A DNA stretch of 63,953 bases, the filler included, from Bonamia ostreae (Eukaryota), in the NCBI GenBank assembly GCA_040357525.1. It is 57 parts of 57 records of this genome, joined end to end, with 100 filler letters (N's around TTAATTAATTAA, not from the genome) between each part and the next. Parts side by side here need not be neighbours in the genome. Positions count along the whole stretch, not along the records: positions 60,699 to 61,717 come from JBDODL010003025.1; 56 more parts are not named here. One strand, written 5' to 3'. The position numbers and the translations under genes are program-made. Position 1 is the first letter of the stretch; each line of letters opens with the position of its first letter. This document shows, in pieces, positions 5,685-63,953 of the stretch. The notes under the pieces are model-generated. The model had not been told where the DNA came from and did no database searches. It saw nothing but the letters and a program-made list of their open reading frames with translations.

Positions 5685-6639
5685 TTAAAGTAAATTAAAA
5701 ACCCAAAAAATCGCAATTTCCTTGCTAACTCGTCCAAACCTTTTATACAAAAATTTATTTTCCTCAAAACACCTTTTCTCTTTCACTCCAACATTTCCAT
5801 TCGCTAAAAATTTTCTCCAAATCTTGCTTTGCTTAATCGATTCCTGGCGACATTGATCTCTCAGATGCAGCGCGGCGAAGAGAGCTGCCGATATTATTGT
5901 CGACGGCGCCGTCGACGACAATTCCGTCTCAAAAATGGACAGTTCTAACAAAAACCAACAAAAATGGCGCTGTTTTTCATTCGTTTTGGCAACGCCGAAA
6001 AAATGGTTGCAGAAAACAGAATGGGACGGTAAACTTAAACTCCATTCCGTGTTTTTGAGCACAAGCTATTTTAAGCAAATTTAGTCGAAATCCAAATTTG
6101 CAATTTTTATTTTGAAAATTTGCAAAAACGATTTCCATTTCATACAAATCCTTGTGCGAAAAAGCGGAATCCGCGACATAAACGAAATCCCTCGCCACCG
6201 GAGGCGCAATTTCAGAGAACTTTGCGGCTATGAACAGAGCTGCGCAGCCCAAGAGCTGAAATCGCGAGCGCGTCACTTTGCGCTTCGAGAGGAACAAATC
6301 GATCAATTCAGCCGCCAAAAAGAGGCAATCTGTTCCAAGCCGGAAACTGGAGCTGACTTCCGACAGCCAGTCGAGCAAAACCAGACGCATTTTGACGGTC
6401 ACATCTTGTTGCGCCGCCATGAAGTTTTGTTTTGGCCTTCTGGCCATTTCAACTTTTTTCAAGTGCGCTAAAATCGCTTTTTCGCCTTCTTTGAACAAAA
6501 ACATGTCTCCAAAAGAGCGTTTTTGAATGTCTTGCGACATTTTTTGGGAAGAAGGGATTTTTTCGGGGTGGAAACTGAAAGGAAACTTTTTCGATTTTAG
6601 TCTTTTTAACTGCTCTTTCCTTTTGTAAATTGAAGTCAT
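5685..6639 (-). CDS. A/B-type cyclin; intron 6066-6129 (64 nt)
   Basis: The cyclin box reads MRLVLLDWLSEV...LFLAAELIDLFLS...FQLLGCAALFIAAKFSEI. Splicing gives YEMEI|LVLKNTEWSLSLP, the canonical continuation. The 3' end is uncertain. Confidence 0.92.
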
Positions 6640-12650: not shown

Positions 12651-13239
12651 ATGGACAAAAAAACCTCCAAAGATTACGAGTCGATGGTCGACAATTCGAA
12701 ATATTACGCTTTCAACAGTCGTCACAGCGAAACTGAAGCTCCCAAAAAACTTTCGGACATCACTTTGAAGCCAAAAAAAGATTGCGTCAAAAATGAAGGA
12801 AGTTGTTTGAGCGATTGGAATAAGCAGAAAACATGGTTTGGAACAAAAATTGTAAAGGGAAGAAAGAGACTACTCGAAAGAGTCCATTGAAAAACTGAAA
12901 AAAATTTTGACTGGAAAAGTCCTTTCGTCGGACGATTTTAGTTTCAGACTGACAGAAATCTCCAAACTCGACGGAAAGACGATCGTCCTTTTCGTCCGCG
13001 GCAAAAAGCGTTTTTCCATTGATCTGGCGATCAAGGGCAAATGGGTCGCGGAAGACGACGAAGAAGTGAAGGGCACGTTTGAAATTCCTCTTTTCGAAGA
13101 GTCGGATGATTTTGAACTTCAGGTCAAAACCGACAAAAGGACGAAAAAAGATTTTGACGCACGACGCTCGTTTCTCAAAACGAAGAAGCATTTCGAGCGC
13201 ATTCTTGGGGCGTTTGAATCTGAGTTCAGGGCCAAATAA
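12651..13239 (+). CDS. Aha1 N-terminal-domain protein (Hsp90 co-chaperone); exons 12651-12835 and 12858-13239
   Basis: Removing the 22-nt GTTTGGAACAAAAATTGTAAAG creates SDWNKQKTWEERDYS and joins it to FVRGKKRFSIDL (RGKK motif) and VKGTFEIP. Confidence 0.85.
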
Positions 13240-13599
13240 ATAAGAATCGTTCACAATTATTTTTCAGTTTGTCGTTTTATTAATTGGAAAACAACAAATT
13301 AATGACAAAAAATAATGAGAAATTTGAAAAAAAAATCTGCAAAAAGCTGAAATTAATGGCAAAAATTTGCATAAATATGGAAAAATTTGCGAAAAAAAAA
13401 CATCAAAATAACACCAATAACTTTAAACTAAAACATCTACACTCTTNNNNNNNNNNNNNNNNNNNNNNNNNNNNNNNNNNNNNNNNNNNNTTAATTAATT
13501 AANNNNNNNNNNNNNNNNNNNNNNNNNNNNNNNNNNNNNNNNNNNNTCTATGTAGATTCCGAATAAGTGAACATGACCTAACAATTAAAAAGGGAAGAT

Positions 13600-13950
13600 A
13601 TGGATAATGGTAAGAAAATAAATTCCCCCAGAAAGAAACAAAAAAATATGTGAATTAATTTTGCCCTACTCCACGTGAAGTCAACAAATAATGGAGAATA
13701 CTAAAGCATTTTTTACGCCTAGTATGGCTTTATAAGAAACATTTTCCCCACAAAACATCCAAAGATGACAGTGTCTCCCAACTCTAAGATGCGAAAGACG
13801 TTTTAGAGAAGCACCCTCTCTACGGACCTAAAAGCACTTAGAAACCTTTTCAAGCTGACTGTTGAGTGAAATTGAAAGGTGTTGACCGTTTCTCTAACAC
13901 GAAAAGCTCGGTGTAGAATCCCAGTTTTCTCTTACGGAGGGATGGACAAA
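13600..13950 (+). mobile_element. Highly decayed Ty3/gypsy-like RT-connection/RNase H remnant
   Basis: Frame-broken peptides KIPPERNKKICELILP, LKHFLRLVWLYKKHFP, KDVLEKHPL...KPF(K)LTV occur in the expected order of PDPEKV..P / LRSFLGLVGYYRRFIP / L..APVL..PF.L.TDAS. There are many stops. Confidence 0.35.
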
Positions 13951-14673
13951 AGAATTTTGGAATAAAACAGGAAGCTTGTAAAGTAACTTAATTGATAAGT
14001 TAGTATTGCTATATATATATTCATAATTGGGTTCAAAAATTACGAAAAACAATTCTGGCAATTTGCAGTTTGTTTTTGCTGAATTTCACATATGAAAGGA
14101 TAATAAAGAACACTAATGTGTGAATTTGTCATTTATTAAAATCAGCAAATAATTAGAAACGAAAATTGAAAATTCCATGATCTTACATGACATTTATCAA
14201 TTGGCTGGGCTTAGATAAGAAAATTTACTAATGACTACGAATTGACTAATTAGAGTTTAAAACAGACAAGACAAAGTAACCCAACCAATAAAACATGTAT
14301 AAATTCTAGAAACACTAAAGATAGAAAACGCTTGCTGATTCTCTTAAAAAAAGACAACATGTGAAATTATATTCTACGACACTAGACGGTAATCGTTTTC
14401 AATATCTTTTAAAACTTAGTATACATTTTTATCCTATTGTCATTAATTATGTACATACATTATGAAAATTTAAACTTTCAGCTTATTTCTAAAACGATGT
14501 TTTATATCTATAAAATAACTTAACCTGTAAATGATAATTATATAAAAAAAAAACATCGTATGTTTCAAGATTTNNNNNNNNNNNNNNNNNNNNNNNNNNN
14601 NNNNNNNNNNNNNNNNNTTAATTAATTAANNNNNNNNNNNNNNNNNNNNNNNNNNNNNNNNNNNNNNNNNNNN

Positions 14674-17954: not shown

Positions 17955-19252
17955 NNNNNNNNNNNNNNNNNNNNNNNNNNNNNNNNNNNNNNNNNNNNTT
18001 AATTAATTAANNNNNNNNNNNNNNNNNNNNNNNNNNNNNNNNNNNNNNNNNNNNTTTCGTTTGACATGCGTAGAGCACACAACATACATGTAGGTACTTG
18101 ATGTTAAAAATACTAATAACCATCGTTTTTGTGGTGCTAGATCTGTAGTATTTCATTTTAATTCTTGATAAAAAACTGTGTTATAAATCCATCATAAAAG
18201 TGTTATTTAATCAGAAGTGTCATATTAGTATCACCCTCCATTCTTGTAATAATGTTTTATTAATCATACAAACTGTAATCATTATTTTACCCCCAAAATA
18301 AACACATATAGCATTGTCTAAATGTAATCATAAAACGACAAAGTAATTGGAAAAAACATGGTCAACCGCAAGTGTGACATACATGTAATTATATTTCAAT
18401 AACTGCAATGGAGGAATACTCAGTTGTTAAGAGTTTTTGTTCAAGAAAATTGTTTTATCAACTGTATTTGAAGACAGGTGGTTCCTCAATTTAGAAATAA
18501 ATACCTGAATAAGAAAAATAGTATTTCTGGTAGCGCCGATGTTGTATGGGTTCCGAGGAATGTTCACGCTAGTTTACAAACAGTCCGAAATTTATGTACA
18601 TGATCACGCCACCACCAGAGAGGGTTTTCATTTGAATCACCTACCATTTACTCGGTGAAATTTTCAATTTCGCTCTTACGGTCGATGTTGTGTTTTTGTT
18701 TTTCATCAGACTGGTAAATAGTGAGTGAGGAATGCAATATACCACATACGGTTCATTCAACTATCGGATTTGTTTTTCGAACATCGGTTCGTTTGACAAA
18801 TACTTGAATAGTCGACTGTAGTTTGGTATCTTTAAAGATATTAGATTGTCATTTTCCCATGCATCTTCCAATATCAAGTGTTCACTCAAAAGATAAAGTA
18901 ACTTCAGTTATTGACGATAACGTGTCATGTTTTGAATTCCCTTGGCATAATCGCTATATTCATATTTTATTTTAGATGTGGAAGAACATATGAGAGGTAT
19001 TATTGTTCTGCTATTCTTTTCGTTGCATAAAAATAGTTAACTTCATTTCTACAAAGTATTTGCAACATTGTTTATATTGTANNNNNNNNNNNNNNNNNNN
19101 NNNNNNNNNNNNNNNNNNNNNNNNNTTAATTAATTAANNNNNNNNNNNNNNNNNNNNNNNNNNNNNNNNNNNNNNNNNNNNCTGTATCACTATATTTGCA
19201 CAACGCTAAAACATTTCCATGTGTCATAAATGGTGATAATCTTTTATCTAAA

Positions 19253-21434: not shown

Positions 21435-22460
21435 TTTGCTAAAATTTTAAATATTTAAAAACGGCCATAATATTTAGTCCCACCACAAATCTCACACTTG
21501 TGGCCAATATTCAAACCATGAAATTTGAACAACCAATACGGAATCGGTCGTCCGTCCCATCCCAAAGGAATCTTTTTCGGGTTGTAAACTCCTTTTTTTG
21601 CGTTAAAATTTAGAACCTCCGCTATAAAGGTCCTCTTCGTCTTGTTTTTCAACATCTTCCTCTTCCTCCTTTTCTCTTTCTTCCAGCTCTTTGCGGACCT
21701 CCTCATAACTTCTCGTCAGCTTCTTTTCTATGTAGGAGCAGGTGCCTTCGAACACTTCCGATAATAATGTTTTGAGCACGCGCACCGCAAACTCCACGTA
21801 AGCAGTCTCCTTCTCTTTGCCTTCGAGTACATTTTTATTTGAGTTTGTTTTGGTTGGATCGCCGTCTGCTTCGCTATTTGAGTTTTTCTTGTTTGTGTCC
21901 TTTTCTCGCAGTTTCCTTTGAACGTTCTTTTTATGTTTTCTACCAGAAATGTGACTTCTCCAGACAGTCTTTTTGAAGCGCTTTTTGCAACTTTCACAGA
22001 AAACGGAGAGACGTTCTTTATCGTTTTTCACAATCCCATTGACTTTCGCCTTCTCATCTCCATCGGGTTTTAGTTTGTCTTCTCTATCTATTTTCCATTT
22101 TTCGTCAGCTCTCATGTCAAGAGGCAATGAGCATTTTGCTGGAAGCTGATGGAACACTTCAAGCGGCCACGGCTTTTGCCATCCGGGAACGTCGCCTTTT
22201 CGCCACCTGTCTTCGAATTCTGTTCGAATGTCTTTCAATATGGCTGAAGTCGGATGGAGCGGGTATCGGCGCGAGTAAAAGTCGGAGAGATAAAGAAGGA
22301 GAGAATTGGAATACCTCCGATAACTAGGAGACCGTTTAGCTAGAGATGGAATATGATGGAAATGGTCGAAAACTTCGAGAAACAATTTGTAGTCGATTTT
22401 TTTGACGCCGCTGAGATACATGTTCGGCATTCCGCGCAGGTTCAAAAAGGTTTGATATTG
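21435..22460 (-). CDS. SF3A3: Splicing factor 3A subunit 3 (Prp9), internal fragment; introns 21592-21616 (25 nt) and 21439-21462 (24 nt)
   Basis: [36 protein letters not shown] is diagnostic. Upstream motifs are [12 protein letters not shown] and WRKGDVPGW. The second intron restores YYG|PK (canonical YRGPKAF). Confidence 0.95.
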
Positions 22461-28086: not shown

Positions 28087-30776
28087 NNNNNNNNNNNNNN
28101 NNNNNNNNNNNNNNNNNNNNNNNNNNNNNNTTAATTAATTAANNNNNNNNNNNNNNNNNNNNNNNNNNNNNNNNNNNNNNNNNNNNAGTTAAAACACATC
28201 AACATGTATCGAAACCATGAAGATGTTTAGATTGGGCTATTACCTCATATTTCATCAACGCGGAAACTAAAAAAAAGTATCCCCAGAAGACATCTAGGTA
28301 AATCGTGGAGTTACTCTCATTCTAAAATCAATAGAACCATTCATATATATGTCATTACATGCAATCTAGGTAATATTAGCTACAACACATAAGTGTATCA
28401 CATGTATCTTAAACGTTAAGCAGTATAGACAAAAAGAAACGAATAGTCTTCCTCAGTCACATGGTATCGCATACCATATTAAAGGTACAGATTGTACCAA
28501 TTAAACGTAGTGCAAAGGTAGTTCTAACAAAGTAGATTGATTTTGGAGGTGTCAAGGTCAAATGTCAACGAAAATACTGAGGACATAAACATATTGCTTT
28601 CAACACAAGATTTTAGGGCACATTGTATGCTAGACATTCACCTTGGTACCTTGGATTCCCTTATATATGATACCGATGTTTTGTACAGCGTGTACTATGC
28701 AACTTACATTTGCTTCCATTTTTTTTTTCGAAAGTAAAACATGTTATGATATTAATGAATTATAAGAAAGTAGTTTCTTTAATCTATCAGGGCATAAATT
28801 ATATAATATTTACTTTTATTACAGAATATTTACTTTCGATATGGATTGACTGGTTTGTAATTTTCAATTTCATTTTCATTTATCTATTCTTGACTTTAAG
28901 CCTCCAAAATCCTGCAAAATCCCCTAATAATCCTTATACGTTACATATAATTATCATTTGGTTATAAAGATTATTCTAAATAAAGGAACCTTAGGCTTAT
29001 GATTACATCCTCATCTTTCCAGAAGCTATGGTTCACAAAGAAAAAAAACCACCGGAAAATACCAACATTACTCTTCAATGTAATATTTCGTCCGACACTG
29101 TTAATATTTACTTCAAATCTAGATAGAATTGTACGGGTTATCGGAACTATAATTTTTTTTTTAACGATACTCAATTGCGTCAGCTATATGATTCGATATG
29201 CAAGAGCTTGNNNNNNNNNNNNNNNNNNNNNNNNNNNNNNNNNNNNNNNNNNNNTTAATTAATTAANNNNNNNNNNNNNNNNNNNNNNNNNNNNNNNNNN
29301 NNNNNNNNNNTGGGATTGTAGTTTAGATTTTGAGAAAAACACAATAAATGTAGAAAATTTGTACATAGGAATATTTTCAAAAATGTCTCTTAAGCACACC
29401 AGACCTGGAATTCTCGAAAATATAAACTCGGAACTTGGACGTTAGTCTGATTTACTCAAACGTTGACTGCTCAAATAAAAGAAAATTCAGATATAGGTTT
29501 GAAATTTTTCCGAAAAATCCCGGTCTATAATTTGGTTAAATCGTTTGCAAATATCATCATGTACTAAATAATTTACACTTTAGCCATCATGTGATCAGAA
29601 TTGGCAAATACAGTAAAAAAAAATAGACTGTATGAAAGGCTTTAGTTTAAATAAAACACATTTGTATGAGAAACATTAGCAAAGCTATAGAAATTGAAGA
29701 CAAATAACATTCAAACTTAATCAAACATTGACATATACACTTTCTGAAGAACGTAGATACATGTAGTATCAATGGAAAAAGTTAACAACACTGATGGTTC
29801 AAGGCTCCACTTCATTTATTAGATATGTCTATCATTTGAATGACACAAAAAATCTTAAAGTCGTCTATAAGCGGAATTATTTTTTTTTATAACAATCTTA
29901 CAAATACAACAATGTTTTACCTGGACAGCAATACCAGATAGTACAAAACATAAAGTGATGCCCATGCTTACAAACGATGAATTTTGTAAAAAAAAAATGT
30001 ATGCCCATTCTTACCAACCCATCAATTTTTAAAAAAAAAAAAAAAAAAAAATTCAGAAAACCAAGATTAGAAAATGCAGAAAGTAAAACATCCACTTCAA
30101 AAACACAAGGATACGTCCTCTCCAACACAAAGACAAAAATAGAGTTTTGAAGAAACTTTGATGGTAGAGAAAGTCTTTTATAAGGCCTCCCTTAAATTCA
30201 CAAGTCAACCACAATCGCGGACGTACTTAGAATTCTAAAACGCAGACTATGTCACTTGTCTTAACATAGAGGATCTTACTTTAAGACGAATCGAAGAAAG
30301 ACCCTAATCAAGAACATAATATAAACATGAAAGGNNNNNNNNNNNNNNNNNNNNNNNNNNNNNNNNNNNNNNNNNNNNTTAATTAATTAANNNNNNNNNN
30401 NNNNNNNNNNNNNNNNNNNNNNNNNNNNNNNNNNAGGAGAAATGATTTGAGACTCTCATGTTTTACTATATCAAAATCAGCTGGACTATAGTTGAATCAA
30501 TACGAAGAATAAGAAAATGTAGATAGATTAGGTATAAAATGACCTATATCTAGGCACAGAAAAATTTGTTTCCAATCAAATAATGTTGAAGCAAAAGCAA
30601 CAGTTTATTTGTAGTAAATAAAGGATGTAGACTTGAAAATGAAAAAATTATGTTCAAATCGCAAACTTAAACCATTTTGAAAGGGGATGAATGAGATCAT
30701 TTTATAAAAATTTTTAATGTCGAATAATTTAAATTAATTCGAAATTAGAAAATCAATTTTCCAAATTTGTATAAAT

Positions 30777-45261: not shown

Positions 45262-46029
45262 ATGATCGATCTCAAGAAAATTACTCTTGTTAACGAAAAT
45301 CAGATCAAATATCGAGATCCATTCTTGTTACATTTGGAACTCCATTGTTACGAACCTGGATTGCCCCCCAATTCAAGTCATTCTTAAAATCTGTCGAAAC
45401 ACAATTTTACTAAAAAAGACATTAAATTTTACAAAAATTCAATTTTTTAGCAATAAAAAATCACTTATTAAAATCGACAAAAATTTAGCGATTATTTTCG
45501 ACATTTCCTTTGTTAGTCCATCTAACGAAAAGGAATTCGAGCAGAAATTGGGTAAATTTGAGATCGGTTCGATTAGAACTGGTTTCAACACTTTCGATTT
45601 GAAAGTCGAAGGTCCTGATCATTCCATTGTTCCAGAAGTTGATCGTTTTGACATTAGCGCGCTAATCATCTCTTGCTCTTATCTTGACCAAGTTAAAATT
45701 GTAATTCGATTTTGCTCAAAATTTAAAATCCAATTTTCTAAAAATCGAATTTTTTGCGAAAATTAAAAATTTAGGAATTTGTAAGAGTTGGATATTTTGT
45801 TTCGTTTTATGTCGCAGAAGAGATGAAAGAACAAATCGAAACAATGGAAAAAATATCTGTTGAAGATGTCAGAAGAAAGATTTTGGAAAATGACGTTCGC
45901 GTGACAAGATTTTCAATTGATTGGAACAAAAGCAAATTGGCCAATTCGGAAAAATTGGACAACGCTAAAAGTTTTGATGGCAAATTAGGTGAAAATTCAA
46001 ATTTGGTGAACAATATGGAAGACGAGTAA
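45262..46029 (+). CDS. ASF1: Histone chaperone ASF1, complete; exons 45262-45376, 45489-45691, 45775-46029
   Basis: The spliced protein has DPFLLHLELHC, SALIISCSYLDQ|EFVRVGYFV and RRKILENDVRVTRFSIDW. Introns of 112 and 83 nt are phase-compatible. Confidence 0.9.
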
Positions 46030-50465: not shown

Positions 50466-53400
50466 TACTGAAGTTATAATAAACAAAGAAGAGAACCACG
50501 TGACCACTGACGGTGATGGTCNNNNNNNNNNNNNNNNNNNNNNNNNNNNNNNNNNNNNNNNNNNNTTAATTAATTAANNNNNNNNNNNNNNNNNNNNNNN
50601 NNNNNNNNNNNNNNNNNNNNNTGTAGTCCTTATAGGAGTTGCAAGATTTGTTACTGTTCTTTATCATCACCTCTTACAAAGGAGTATAACATTTCCTCAA
50701 AGATAAGAGATTTACTGAGTGAAACAGACTTTGAATCCACCCACTCACGACCTAAAGAAAATAATTAACAAAAACATGTTTAACACTGACATTGCACTTA
50801 GTTATAGTGACTTCGCACACAACTCAGTATTTAGAAATCACGTAAAATATGAGCTTGGTATGTTTTTTAATATTCATCAACTGCTAGAGACATTGATATC
50901 ATCAAAATGCCTTTGACCATGGCCAAATAACCTAGATTTAGGACCATGACACAATGACCTTTGTGTCAATTAGTTCTAATGCATCTCCATTACAAAGTGA
51001 AAACGAGAACAAATATTTCTAACGTTTTGATAGTGACCTTGGTTAAGGTAATTACAGATTGTTTCCATTACAAAATTGTTATCTAGAGGGAAATGGGTTG
51101 AAAGGACAGACAGACATGGCTTGCACAACAAATATTATCAATGAAATCTAAACCATATTGGGGCAAAATAATTCCCCTATTCTGACGGAGCAATTTACAA
51201 GAGACATCACGTTTGGTATGTATCAATAAGAACAAGCCTTTAATTATCTAATGCAAATGTCAGCGTCCGTGATCATTATGAAAGTTTTGTTAATCAGAAA
51301 CAAAATGTGTAAGTAATGTACATGTTAAACTACAATTTCGCCATGTATGTTCTATAAACTTCAACTGTTGGATTGAAACGGGCCAAACAGGTACTGTGAA
51401 TGCAAAGTAGGTGCTAGAACTGTAGGTTGTGCTACCTATACATTGCATTCAGTTTGATGGTACTTAGGGTATATGCTCATAATTAGCCCCAGATACTAGT
51501 TCCTTCTGAATATACAAATATGATGCAAATATTAATTAATAAAGTAGCCATTGAACAATAGTGTGAAATTATCTTAAAGGAGAATCTTTGTCTTAAAATA
51601 TCATAGATTAGAGATTTTTCATTTTATACTAGTAGTTTATTNNNNNNNNNNNNNNNNNNNNNNNNNNNNNNNNNNNNNNNNNNNNTTAATTAATTAANNN
51701 NNNNNNNNNNNNNNNNNNNNNNNNNNNNNNNNNNNNNNNNNAATTGAATATTTTTCCTATGCGAATAATGGACCCTAACCGTTTTACAAACAAAAAAAAA
51801 AAAAAAAAATAGCGCAAGAAGTTGAAATTAAAAGCAGTCGGTTTGGTATATTTGTTACACAGTGAATGCTTGAACTAATATGGAATATATGTCCTTAGTA
51901 AATCCCATATGGAACGCAGTTCGTGAAGTTAAAGAAGTATTGATTCATTGAAATATCTATAACGTAACATGTTGTCATAGTTCATATGCTTTTTGAGATA
52001 TGCTTATTTTGAGTATAATTAAATGAAATTATACCCGTCCCAGTTAGATGCATTTCTAATTTGAGTTAGTTGATAAGTTTGTAAAGATATAAAAATTTTA
52101 CTTACTTATTATGGAAAACAATTTCATGACTTTCAATGATGTCTCAAATGAAGATATGAGAAAAACGTTTTCTCCTTTATAATGATTTATCATGTGACGT
52201 AAACTAGAAATTGAAAATCAATTTGTGACACAGCTTAGACGATTTCAATATAGGAGTTATACTCATGTAGAAGGCGTGTTATAGCCAAATAATAGTCTGT
52301 AGATATCATGCTGACAAATGAACGCTATTAAGCACTGCTTTATCATTTATAAGGTTTTGAATGACACCTCCCACTCTCATTGCTCTTTGTTGAACATCTT
52401 GACTCACACCAGCCTTTCTCACGATTGATAAGACAATGTTTATTCAATGTAGTTTCGATTTGGGTATTCGGAAATAAATATATCCAAAAACATGATCCTG
52501 CTTAGAAATGTGCTGAGTCTGTTACCTTTTCTTTGGTTGCAACCATATCTAAAAATCATCACAAAATGTTCATGATATCAAAGTCAACATTGAAACATCA
52601 TGCGGAACCGTTTTTTATAAGTTCATTGCCGAACAAACCCATCACCTTGGTCTGTCAACTTGCACGAATTTTAAACGGTCCCTTGTTAAAAAATATAATA
52701 TATTTATTTCTCAAGCAAGTATATCGAAATAAAGATTTGGTTAGGGTCTCGTTACCTATTGNNNNNNNNNNNNNNNNNNNNNNNNNNNNNNNNNNNNNNN
52801 NNNNNTTAATTAATTAANNNNNNNNNNNNNNNNNNNNNNNNNNNNNNNNNNNNNNNNNNNNATCCGCCGCTAAAATATTTACTAAACGGCGTTGACATTT
52901 GGCCATTTTATAATAAAAAAGAAAATAAAACATATTTTTCTCTTTTCGAAATGTCCGAATTCGGAGATTTGAGTTCAACTTGTTTCAATGTTGAAACTTT
53001 CACAACAAAAAATATTAATGTTAACAATGAAAATACTTTTTATAGCGCTTTAAAAAGTTTTTTTTGTTTCAAAAATTTTCAATTTTAGCGATTTTGCCCT
53101 GCAACAAACAATACGTCAAAATGGGCGATGAAAACATTAAAAACAAATATTTGAATGCAACGGATTGTTTTAATTAAATTTGAGCCAAAAGATCTTGCAA
53201 CAAAATGGGACAAAAAATCTCATGCAACAAAAGTTTTGTTGTATCGAAAAAGAAAAAGAAAAATTGATTTTGAGAATAAAATTAAAAATGCGAATTTTGA
53301 TGATTTGAATGAAGCCGCAAATCATTTTTTAAAATTTAAAAAATATTTGATCAAATTTTTGCGTTTGCCAAGAACGCTGTTTTTTCGAGCTCAATTTCAA

Positions 53401-56800: not shown

Positions 56801-58460
56801 TATATAATACATTCAATATCAAATCAATTTATTTATGTACATATATGTATATTTAAAATTCCCCACAGGGTACCCACCATAAAGCGTGACAAAGTGTTTT
56901 CCCGTGGTTTATAGTAAATCACAGGGCTTGCTCCCGTTCGTAAAATATTATAAACAATACAATTATTATTTTATAAACAGTAGCAAACCTATGTGAGTGA
57001 ATAAACTCTATTTTTTAGGAGCTAGTTGTATTCAACTTGCCCGTCCATCCACGCACAGGGGCATCTTATCCGCTCTCTATCACACATGCGTTTAATATAT
57101 ATGTGAAAGAGATCAGGGCGGAAAAGATGCCCTGTGGCAGTAATATTTGTGAAGAAAATATATCCCTTTTTCTTAATGGTATGTTTCGGGCCCAATCTTT
57201 ACCAGAAGCTGCTCACACATGCTGGGGTCATAATAGGAGTANNNNNNNNNNNNNNNNNNNNNNNNNNNNNNNNNNNNNNNNNNNNTTAATTAATTAANNN
57301 NNNNNNNNNNNNNNNNNNNNNNNNNNNNNNNNNNNNNNNNNCAAAAGTCCAGTGATACACCTATTACATAGCCGTTCATTAACAGAAAATCTCGGTCATC
57401 CAACTTTATCATTTTATTGCCAATAGAAAGTCAGCTATTGATGTTGCAGAATTATACTTGAGTAAAACCAATGACTACCGTCTTCTTGAGAGTGTGATAC
57501 ATTATGGTTTCGTCTATGAATTGTAATACGTTAGAAGAGGATTGCATGTTTTATGCATTTCGGTAGCTATTAACAAAGTCTTGTGCATTTTGATACATGA
57601 AACAAGTAAACTTACAATGTTGCAGTATCGTGAATATTCAATCATTGAATAAAATTACATGACATTATCTAAATCAAAAAGCTTTAGTTTTCATATTTCG
57701 ATTTTTTAAAAGCAAAAAACACTCTCTATAGAAGTCCCAATTATGTTTTTGTATGTGTGTTTACATTGATTCACAAGCGATTAATTCGCAATAGTTTTAA
57801 CAATTTAGATACAATTCCCGCAGTTGATCAGCAATGATAGTTGCCCTACAACAGGCTGTAACGACGAAACTTATTATCATATCTAGGATGAAATACGTGT
57901 GCATTGTACTTGCATCCTATACGTATTCAATAGAGATAACACCATTATATTGAATAAACAAATATGCCATAATATGCCTCTTTTGTGATATTTTTAAGTG
58001 TATCAGTAATATAAGGTGTTTATCTTAAAAGTATGATAAAACTACTTAATTTACCTCACTTTTTGTGTGCATATCTTTAATATGTTTTTGACCTGAGATA
58101 CAGAGTTGTGGGTAATGTCCGAATCATCCCTTTAGCTGATAAACTTATATCTCTAAATATTACGCTGGAGACAAGTTGTGACAGTATTGATTGTTTATTC
58201 TTACATCTGTATAAAGATTAAATTTCTATTGATAAACAATTTTATATCTAAACGCCAGCACATTTTGTCTTTTTTAGTTCATGCAAAATACTACAAATAT
58301 GAAGGGATATTTCAGTCTGCATGAAATCTCTAATTTTATAAAGAATTTGCTAATCCTTATNNNNNNNNNNNNNNNNNNNNNNNNNNNNNNNNNNNNNNNN
58401 NNNNTTAATTAATTAANNNNNNNNNNNNNNNNNNNNNNNNNNNNNNNNNNNNNNNNNNNN

Positions 58461-60498: not shown

Positions 60499-60757
60499 CT
60501 GAAATTTTTAGAAAAGAATTATTGATTTAACGACAAAAAATGTTTTATTTAAACGACAAAAAATATTATTTAAACGACAAAAATCATTTTTTTAAAACNN
60601 NNNNNNNNNNNNNNNNNNNNNNNNNNNNNNNNNNNNNNNNNNTTAATTAATTAANNNNNNNNNNNNNNNNNNNNNNNNNNNNNNNNNNNNNNNNNNNNAA
60701 AAAATTTTTAAAGAAAAATTTAAATTTGAAACTAAAAAATTTGAATAAAATCTCAAG

Positions 60758-61226
60758 GCGTCGCCTACTACCTGTCGCCGCCGAAGTCTCTGATCGAAAT
60801 CTTGTCCGACCCATTCCACGCCGCGGTCTACTTTGCCTTCATCCTGGTCAGCGCCGCCCTCTTCTCGCGCACGTGGGTCGACGTCTCGGGGAGCAGCCCA
60901 AAGTTTTGACACAACATTAGAAGGGACGTCGCGAAGCAGCTCAATAACGAGAAGATGGTCCTCAAAGGCCACCGCGGGAGAAACACGGTCAAACTCTTGT
61001 ACAAGTACATTCCCATCGCGGCCGCGTTCGGCGGAATGTGCATCGGAGCTCTCACCATCTTCGCGGACTACACGGGTTTCCATCTAGATCTTTAGGTGCG
61101 ATCGGATCCGGGACGGGCATTCTGATGGTGGTGACCATCATCTTCCAGTACTTCGAGATTTACGCGAAGGAGCAGCAAAAAGACGGCGGCAATCTTTTGT
61201 CGATGCTGAAGCCCGGTGCTTATTAA
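60758..61226 (+). CDS. SEC61A: Sec61 translocon alpha subunit, C-terminal exons 60758-60902, 60924-61075, 61096-61226
   Basis: The spliced product reads GVAYYLSPP...DPFHA...[20 protein letters not shown]...GHR...[44 protein letters not shown]. Introns are 21 and 20 nt. Confidence 0.97.
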
Positions 61227-62559
61227 ATGCGTTGTGACTTTTCTCTTCTACTTGCTTTATCAGCTCTTTTTCATCTGTTTTGATTTGGCGGGAGAACTCC
61301 GTCTCTTTTCGATGTTACAAATTTGAGTTTGGCTTGTCGTGGGACGTCATTCATTTTTCTGTACAAATTTAAACTTTTTCTGGTACAGCAAATTAAAATA
61401 TGGCGAAAACGACAGATTTTTTGAAAAATAGTTTCAACGTTATTGAAAAGTTTTCTTCGGCTGTTTTTATTGTACAAGAGCAACATTAAACTTTTTATCT
61501 GTTTTTAGTAAAATTGCAATTTATAAAGACACCATTTTTATTAAAATAATTCCAATTTTCAGCATTTTCCTTTAATTTGAGGAAAGTCTCGCGTTTTTAC
61601 AGAGAACAAAGTTGATTGGGAGGTCACATTTTTTTTATTTGTTTAAGCTGTCCTAGAAAAAAAGGAAAACTTATTTAATGTCGAAAAAAAATTCCAGAAA
61701 AAAATAATTGCTTTAAANNNNNNNNNNNNNNNNNNNNNNNNNNNNNNNNNNNNNNNNNNNNTTAATTAATTAANNNNNNNNNNNNNNNNNNNNNNNNNNN
61801 NNNNNNNNNNNNNNNNNTGTTTTCCGGTGTTATGACCGAACCTAACGAAACAGTCACAACAAAACCGAACAACATAAAACGTGGTATGCCTAGATACGAG
61901 TATGATTAACACGACATTGCTGTTCTTTTTAAAAGATGTTCTTTCTTGTATACACGCTTTATGTCGAATTGATTTAATCTAACCACAGAATAAACAAGAA
62001 CTCTTAAATCCACACAACTCAGATACGTTTGCATTTTGATATAATGTTTGTGACCCTGATACTCTTTAAAAGAATTTTTTAAATCAATTATCAGTGTATT
62101 CACAAATAAAACTTTGATCTCCTGGACCCTTGAATTGTAGAAACTTAAATTTGAACTACATGAAGGTGTCTGTATATCTTGATCAACAAACACGGCCCTA
62201 CTGCTATTGAAATGTAGGCTTCAGAATGTGTTTTTCTGTTGTCATTTGTCTGTTAACTCTTTCACGTTTTCATATTCCCCAGAACAACTGGGCCAGTTTC
62301 AATAACAACACAATCAAGAAAAAGACCAAAATAGGGTGGGATCATTTAATAATCTGATCATTAAAGCCCCACTACACCAGACAAGTTGAAATTTACATGA
62401 ACGTTTCCTGAGTCTTTTGTTGATATCATGTCCTTCGGGTAAAAGGTAGAGTCATGATACGAGATAAACATTTATCATAGGAATAAATAAGGAAGCATTC
62501 TGAAGGTGCTTGTATATCACTCTAATTAAGCATGGTCCTTTTTTGCTGTGTTTTTAAGA

Positions 62560-63780: not shown

Positions 63781-63953
63781 ACTAATTTTTTAGTGATTTT
63801 TTAACAATTTTTGTTTTTGCAATTTTTTTTAACAATTTTTTCAATATTTTTAGTGATTTTTTTTGACAATTTTTAACAATTTTGTCAATGTTTTTAATAA
63901 TTTTTTTGACAATTTTTTGCAATTTTTTTAACAATTTTTATTTTTGCAATTTT

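Follow-up and report, generated by a model that had tools for sequence, protein, structure and literature searches.

How does Bonamia ostreae, a haplosporidian parasite of oysters (Ascetosporea, Rhizaria), make a continuous Sec61-alpha protein from a gene whose reading frame is interrupted by two inserts of only 21 and 20 nt? Both inserts lie on one small contig of the window, by which we mean the whole stretch of 63,953 bases that was analysed. The window consists of 59 N-free pieces, nearly all of them 1,018-1,030 nt long and separated by linkers of the form N..TTAATTAATTAA..N; these pieces are small contigs of a fragmented assembly placed end to end, and they represent several loci, not one. 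The window is in keeping with the B. ostreae genome as characterised in the available parts of the genome description (12.24 Mb, 9,705 scaffolds, N50 1,417 bp, 33.3% GC; PMC11069148).

The contig that carries the inserts (60699-61717, 1,019 nt, 40.5% GC) is best explained as the last third of the B. ostreae Sec61-alpha gene. Three successive open frames lie along it, at 60745-60909, 60910-61095 and 60948-61226. A 110-residue query that reads through the stop codon between the first two frames (TGA=X) aligned with residues 340-437 of the solved human Sec61-alpha (E 3.4e-31), with a single 7-residue gap located exactly at the first insert. The third frame begins at residue 440 of the solved chains (E 1.2e-07), and residues 437-439 correspond to the end of the second exon plus the split codon, directly before that frame. 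Pfam SecY matched the 152-nt coding exon at 60924..61075, which is also covered by the PDB alignment, on its own (32.3 bits against a cut-off of 32.2, E 8.6e-08), and similarity to the Sec61-alpha/SecY channel subunit was thereby found over the C-terminal part of the protein. This exon is preceded by a coding exon at 60758..60902 (human residues about 340-388; 63% GC) and followed by the last coding exon at 61096..61226, which encodes the C-terminal residues from human 440 on and ends in a TAA stop codon (61224-61226). The spliced coding sequence comprises 429 nt with one terminal stop. The exons have a GC content of 52-63% and their codon bias is extreme, GC3 reaching 82.5% in this highly expressed gene (60757-61226), as against 10-35% GC in the introns and flanks and the 33% reported for the genome.

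The first insert (GTTTTGACACAACATTAGAAG, 60903..60923 on the plus strand) starts with GTTTTGAC, ends with TAGAAG, lies in phase 2 and contains an in-frame TGA at 60907-60909, whereas the second (GTTTCCATCTAGATCTTTAG, 61076..61095, plus strand) starts with GTTTCCAT, ends with CTTTAG, lies in phase 1 and shifts the frame if it is retained. A preliminary description of the locus had given these strings, their lengths of 21 and 20 nt, the in-frame stop and the frame shift, and all of them were recovered exactly. Both inserts open with GT and close with AG, and placing the same deletion in any other way never gives canonical ends; by simple arithmetic, a random insert would start with GT and end with AG with a chance of 1/256, for each of the two. 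They are also AT-rich (33% GC for insert 1 and 35% for insert 2), to a degree that is reached by only 2.4% of the 20-nt windows of the spliced coding sequence. We joined the three exons in silico and aligned the encoded sequence to the 120 homologs that a protein search had listed. All 120 matched, with a median identity of 67%, and 119 of them spanned both junctions; none of these 119 had a gap within six residues of either junction, and 110 were wholly gapless. Removal of both inserts thus leaves a single open frame, collinear with the homologs, which bears out the earlier proposal that a conserved Sec61-alpha results from it; the pattern goes far past what chance would produce. At the level of sequence, the exons join seamlessly and the inserts are present in the DNA, and it is almost certain that the two, 21 and 20 nt long, represent ultra-short introns.

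The exact 3′ end of intron 1 deserves separate consideration, given that its acceptor is a tandem TAG/AAG. Use of the upstream TAG would remove 18 nt (60903-60920) and add one residue to the protein, and within the TAGAAG tandem the 18- and the 21-nt choices both keep the frame. Nevertheless, it is unlikely that a substantial share of the transcripts uses the upstream acceptor, as the 21-nt model leaves no gap at the intron 1 junction in 119 of 119 homologs and is also the one used in the deposited gene model. This deposited model, 'hypothetical protein MHBO_004043, partial [Bonamia ostreae]' (P0121; 106 residues, 93% identity, from a contig of 1,019 nt), excises exactly the 21-nt intron 1 and leaves the 20-nt intron 2 unspliced, running six residues into it before reaching a stop codon. 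It consequently lacks the last 43 residues of Sec61-alpha, and these 43 residues match the solved Sec61-alpha chains. A protein search for a spliced, transcript-derived B. ostreae protein returned none, the deposited model alone appearing, and one further protein search gave the window's own ORF as the sole match. Likewise, among proteins of at least 90% identity in the length bands 60-193 and 194-2000 residues, we found only the model of the Sec61-alpha contig itself.

A partial deposited model that terminates at a stop codon inside insert 2 would also be expected of a decaying pseudogene or paralogue, or of inserts that are mere artefacts of assembly or sequencing, and the assembly is indeed very fragmented, with contigs of about 1 kb and an N50 of 1,417 bp according to the accessible text of its description (PMC11069148). 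We nonetheless regard these explanations as very improbable. DNA contigs of two runs from different studies, X1 (possibly the source of the assembly) and X2, cover the whole stretch without a gap at the inserts, and X2 differs from the window by eight letters and one gap, all of them outside the inserts. Since identical inserts are present in DNA from two separate studies, they are not assembly errors. The gene is moreover expressed and under purifying selection. Its expression is very high in a third run that behaves like RNA (X3, see below), and the three variant exon positions in X2 and X3 (60783, 60801 and 61160) are all synonymous third-codon changes. The frame past insert 2 still matches Sec61-alpha chains (E 1.2e-07), which is not expected of an untranslated remnant. 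The protein search in the two length bands, which gave no other protein at or above 90% identity, also speaks against a paralogue, although an intronless second copy of Sec61-alpha may exist elsewhere in the fragmentary genome.

None of the listed sequencing runs is recorded as RNA, and the RNA label of X3 is an automatic guess, but the run behaves as RNA. X3 has a depth of 0 over 60699-60732 and again over 61651-61717, a downstream spacer; it joins letters of an upstream exon at 60757, and it contains joints of 65 and 80 nt that correspond to GT-AG introns on the minus strand. The first of these regions belongs to the 3′ end of a longer intron (60699..60757, plus strand; at least 58 nt, 10% GC) with an acceptor AG at 60756-60757 and a donor that lies off the contig. 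Two contigs of X3 and one of a further run, X6, align only from 60757 on and carry identical, GC-rich and stop-free letters before it. These shared letters identify the AT-rich stretch 60699-60757 as the end of an intron and place the upstream exon off the contig; the G at 60757 may belong to the exon at 60758..60902 instead of the intron. On the other side of the gene, the 3′ UTR (61227..61345, plus strand) is covered by X3 record 11 (61191-61345, depth 354), with a change in coverage at 61345/61347.

Within the exons, the depth of X3 rises up to 1.5e5. In the bin that holds insert 1 (60903-60936) it is 25.8k, versus 83k and 149k in the flanking bins, and in the bin that holds insert 2 (61073-61106) it is 40.3k, versus 110k and 102k; contig depth cannot rank the parts of a gene, and this roughly threefold dip at both inserts is in keeping with splicing but, as a hole in coverage, is no proof of it. 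The sole contig listed across insert 2 (61049-61123, ungapped) retains the insert at a depth of 4,871, which amounts to 7-27% of the exon depth (18,241-71,291 at the three exon positions with totals). Among the contigs listed, 8 of 120, none joined 60902 to 60924 or 61075 to 61096, and none showed joints or deletions at either short insert; a junction contig of 57-60 nt with a 20-nt gap may fall below the 90% likeness filter. An argument for a splice bubble from the positions of contig breaks was dropped. Record 9 runs from 61049 to 61123, one base inside the retained-branch unitig expected at k=31 (61048-61124), and the boundaries never fitted exactly. The depth profile suggests that most transcripts lack the inserts and that a minority keep insert 2, and in X3 there is no sign of retention for the long upstream intron, so that splicing of the short introns would be less complete than that of the long one. 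Overall, the data argue strongly for splicing of both inserts. Homology, AT-richness, DNA from two studies, synonymous variants and RNA-like depth all point in the same direction, and both inserts are very probably GT-AG introns, as first proposed.

The existence of an RNA-like contig that retains insert 2 also brings up the possibility that the inserts are kept in the mRNA and are dealt with by the ribosome, through stop-codon read-through at the TGA of insert 1 and, at insert 2, either a programmed frameshift or a bypass of 20 nt. The length of insert 1 is divisible by three and its frame holds a single stop, and at both ends of insert 2 stands the triplet GGT (61075-61077 and 61095-61097), with a spacing of 20 nt, like a pair of take-off and landing sites. 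Programmed translational bypass, as known from gene 60 of phage T4, involves take-off and landing codons that match and restore the correct frame. Matching codons of this kind that restore the frame were not found for the two inserts together: the GGT triplets at insert 2 do lie 20 nt apart, but at insert 1 the AAG repeats are 20 nt apart where a skip of 21 nt is needed, such that a hop would land out of frame. Recoding would take two different rare events in one gene, and read-through would place a 7-residue insertion in a motif that is uninterrupted in 119 of 119 homologs. Furthermore, recoding would assign no role to the AT-richness, to the GT..AG ends or to a GTT start common to the introns, the contig retaining insert 2 accounts for only a minor part of the exon depth, and the standard code leaves long AT-rich ORFs open in other parts of the window. 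We therefore consider recoding highly improbable, and return to splicing as the preferred reading.

If both inserts are spliced out, the other introns of the window should tell by which signals. On the same contig, a convergent transcript on the minus strand (61347..61628, from X3) abuts the 3′ UTR of Sec61-alpha at 61345/61347. Its intron begins with GTTGAAAC at 61438 and extends down to either 61359 (80 nt) or 61374 (65 nt), using alternative acceptors; the joints 61358>61439 and 61373>61439 in X3 have CT..AC ends, equivalent to GT..AG on the minus strand. A search of all frames on the contig gave no long ORF for this transcript. Two introns of similar size are supported by domain matches that continue from one frame into another. 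In a cyclin gene, an intron of 64 nt (6066..6129, minus strand) that begins with GTTTTTGC separates Pfam Cyclin_N in one frame from Cyclin_C in the other, and in ASF1 an intron of 83 nt (45692..45774, plus strand) that begins with GTTAAAAT separates positions 29-107 of ASF1_hist_chap in one ORF from positions 105-154 in the next.

A third short intron was found in the gene for SF3a3/Prp9, itself a component of the spliceosome, at 21592..21616 on the minus strand. It begins with GTTCTAAA and is most likely 25 nt long, and models of 19, 28 or 37 nt likewise join both frames. The upstream ORF (21606-22460, minus strand) stops inside the GTT..AG stretch and the downstream frame (21458-21589, minus strand) matches positions 1-38 of Pfam SF3a60_Prp9_C (E 2.6e-16), and a short intron is therefore needed to join the two. 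In the same gene, a fourth short intron of 24 nt (21439..21462, minus strand; GTTTTTAA..TTTTAG, 8% GC) is a tentative and weak candidate, with 4 nt of the next exon on the contig. A 22-nt candidate at 12836-12857, ahead of the Aha1_N domain of AHA1, is also tentative, as nothing upstream of it shows homology. For a short intron in MOB1 (609-923), no convincing donor was found. A blind scan for ORF-joining introns of 15-40 nt gave 126 GT..AG candidates and was too noisy, and from it we kept only introns with support from homology or RNA. Three further stretches of the form GTTNNNA..AAG/TAG (28961-28985, 53167-53191 and, on the minus strand, 63782-63805; 24-25 nt) would each join two open frames, without homology.

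All six well-supported introns with their 5′ end on a contig (introns 1 and 2 of Sec61-alpha, the minus-strand intron and those of cyclin, ASF1 and SF3a3) start with GTT, as do both of the tentative ones. In the window, GT is followed by T at a base rate of 0.377, which gives p ~0.003 for six out of six. The two short introns of Sec61-alpha thus carry the same splice-site signature as the minus-strand intron with its RNA joints. In each of the five short candidates (60903, 61076, 12836 and, on the minus strand, 21616 and 21462), position 7 is an A (GTTNNNA). In what is a small sample, this A may represent a branch point at a fixed position. The preliminary description had gone further and proposed a spliceosome adapted to minimal introns. 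While the part of this idea that stands is the reach down to 20 nt, the adaptation to minimal introns was overstated, because introns of at least 58, of 64, of 65/80 and of 83 nt are also present. The longer introns in the same window indicate a broad size range down to 20 nt and not a regime of minimal introns only.

We consider it very likely that Sec61-alpha contains two U2-type GT-AG spliceosomal introns, and that these are excised by a spliceosome that also handles introns of 60-85 nt. According to this model, one and the same spliceosome would take the short and the 60-85 nt introns out of the pre-mRNA; it would tolerate intron lengths between about 20 and more than 80 nt and recognise the introns by a GUU 5′ site, and the common signals would be an unusual 5′ GTT and a 3′ (A/T/C)AG. 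The resulting mRNA would then encode the C-terminal part of the channel without interruption. A role of the spliceosome in the removal is what we infer, and a protein endonuclease plus ligase pathway or an editing-type deletion could in principle remove the inserts from RNA as well. In support of such a route, a length of 20-21 nt falls at the bottom of the size range known for spliceosomal introns, no branch point could be named, and massive RNA editing has been described in ascetosporean mitochondria (PMC11946409, in the portion available). However, that editing is mitochondrial and Sec61-alpha is nuclear, three other lineages are known to have spliceosomal introns as short as 15-21 nt (available text of PMC10245619), and the inserts have canonical GT..AG ends and the same GTT start as longer introns with GT-AG joints in the RNA-like run. 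Removal by a non-spliceosomal pathway accordingly appears a far-fetched explanation to us, and spliceosomal excision remains the preferred one. Regarding the machinery itself, we found no Rfam family over the whole window (64 kb), and so no snRNA there, and no tRNA in the window either.

The proposed introns can be compared with the ultra-short introns documented to date, which, in the accessible text of PMC10245619, comprise those of mikrocytids (16-17 nt), chlorarachniophyte nucleomorphs (18-21 nt) and heterotrich ciliates (15-16 nt). The mikrocytids are the closest case, as they belong to Ascetosporea like B. ostreae (PMC10245619 and PMC11069148, as far as available). The 224 introns predicted in Mikrocytos mackini are without exception 16 or 17 nt long and highly conserved in sequence, its reduced spliceosome has 17-19 proteins, and mikrocytid splicing is incomplete (63% for 16-nt and 37% for 17-nt introns) (PMC10245619, in the text available). 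B. ostreae would resemble M. mackini and Paramikrocytos canceri in having ultra-short spliceosomal introns in essential housekeeping genes of an ascetosporean parasite of marine invertebrates, and apparently also in splicing them incompletely (same source). It is unlike them in that introns of 20-25 nt stand beside introns of 64-83 nt in the window, and in that its introns share only GTT..AG, possibly plus the A at position 7, whereas those of M. mackini are highly conserved. The numerous nucleomorph introns fall in the same size class of 18-21 nt (Gilson et al. 2006, cited in the available part of PMC10245619); a nucleomorph, however, is the relic nucleus of an endosymbiont with introns of a narrow size range, while B. 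ostreae has the short introns in its own nuclear genome together with longer ones. In heterotrichs such as Stentor, introns of 15-16 nt are likewise tiny and removed by the spliceosome (Slabodnick et al. 2017, via the same text), but these introns are uniform in size and occur in free-living organisms with a large genome, in contrast to the mixed sizes in the different lineage of B. ostreae. The Sec61-alpha introns, at 21 and 20 nt, do fall within the length of such uniform regimes (about 25 nt or less). Nevertheless, the one narrow size class that defines these regimes was not found in B. ostreae, since the short introns of the window are accompanied by others of 64, 83, 65/80 and at least 58 nt.

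Descriptions of B. ostreae introns have so far been of a different kind. The available text of PMC11069148 assigns canonical introns to B. ostreae, with a mean of two per mRNA, and ascribes very short introns to mikrocytids alone; the text available gives no intron lengths for B. ostreae, and the supplements may hold length tables. More generally, intron numbers and sizes are stated to be drastically reduced in Ascetosporea (PMC13746701, 2026, text available in part). In the literature covered, including the accessible parts of PMC11069148, PMC10245619, PMC13746701 and PMC9329632, we found no description of introns of 20-25 nt in Bonamia or other haplosporidians. A metagenome scan gave three loci of 54-61% identity, which are too distant for a comparison of intron positions.

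As 20-21 nt is the lower limit for removal by known spliceosomes and has hitherto been reported in a handful of lineages, these introns would add a haplosporidian to the groups with ultra-short introns, with the additional feature that the same machinery also removes introns of 60-85 nt. B. ostreae would hence offer a natural system in which to ask what sets the minimum length of an intron and how miniaturisation proceeds, and it is a possible intermediate in the miniaturisation of ascetosporean introns. A wider and more tentative idea, which we think could hold but would not expect to, is that the species has two intron classes, micro-introns of 20-25 nt and introns of 60-85 nt, both recognised through an unusual GUU 5′ site and with the micro-introns being spliced less completely. 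If this were true, haplosporidians would preserve an intermediate stage of a miniaturisation that ends at 16-17 nt in mikrocytids, and many public gene models of B. ostreae would be truncated because of missed micro-introns. For Sec61-alpha, the consequence is already visible: the public model of an essential gene is short by 43 residues as a 20-nt intron was not called. The reading frame of SF3a3 is cut off in a similar way, the ORF-only protein of this gene (P0241, 272 aa; 21435-22460, minus strand) ending at the stop codon in the first intron and thereby lacking the Prp9 C-terminal domain. Comparisons of gene content and gene loss that involve this commercially important oyster pathogen may be biased by such missed micro-introns.

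Lastly, we made some observations on the remainder of the data. Around the stop codon of Sec61-alpha (61209-61245), the depth of X3 drops from ~22,600 to 3,500 and then to 354 within about 30 nt, and its contigs break at 61220/61221, three bases ahead of the TAA; a variant, an artefact of the contigs or a major site of polyadenylation could each account for this fall. Among the 1-kb contigs of the window, about half lack an ORF of more than ~70 residues in every frame (for example, 1131-2160, 13547-14573, 18055-19081 and 57342-58360) and may be non-coding DNA of the parasite or residual host sequence. The contig at 27062-28086 carries, on its minus strand, three abutting or overlapping ORFs of 137, 92 and 117 aa in different frames, a prokaryote- or phage-like layout, and may be a contaminant of the assembly.
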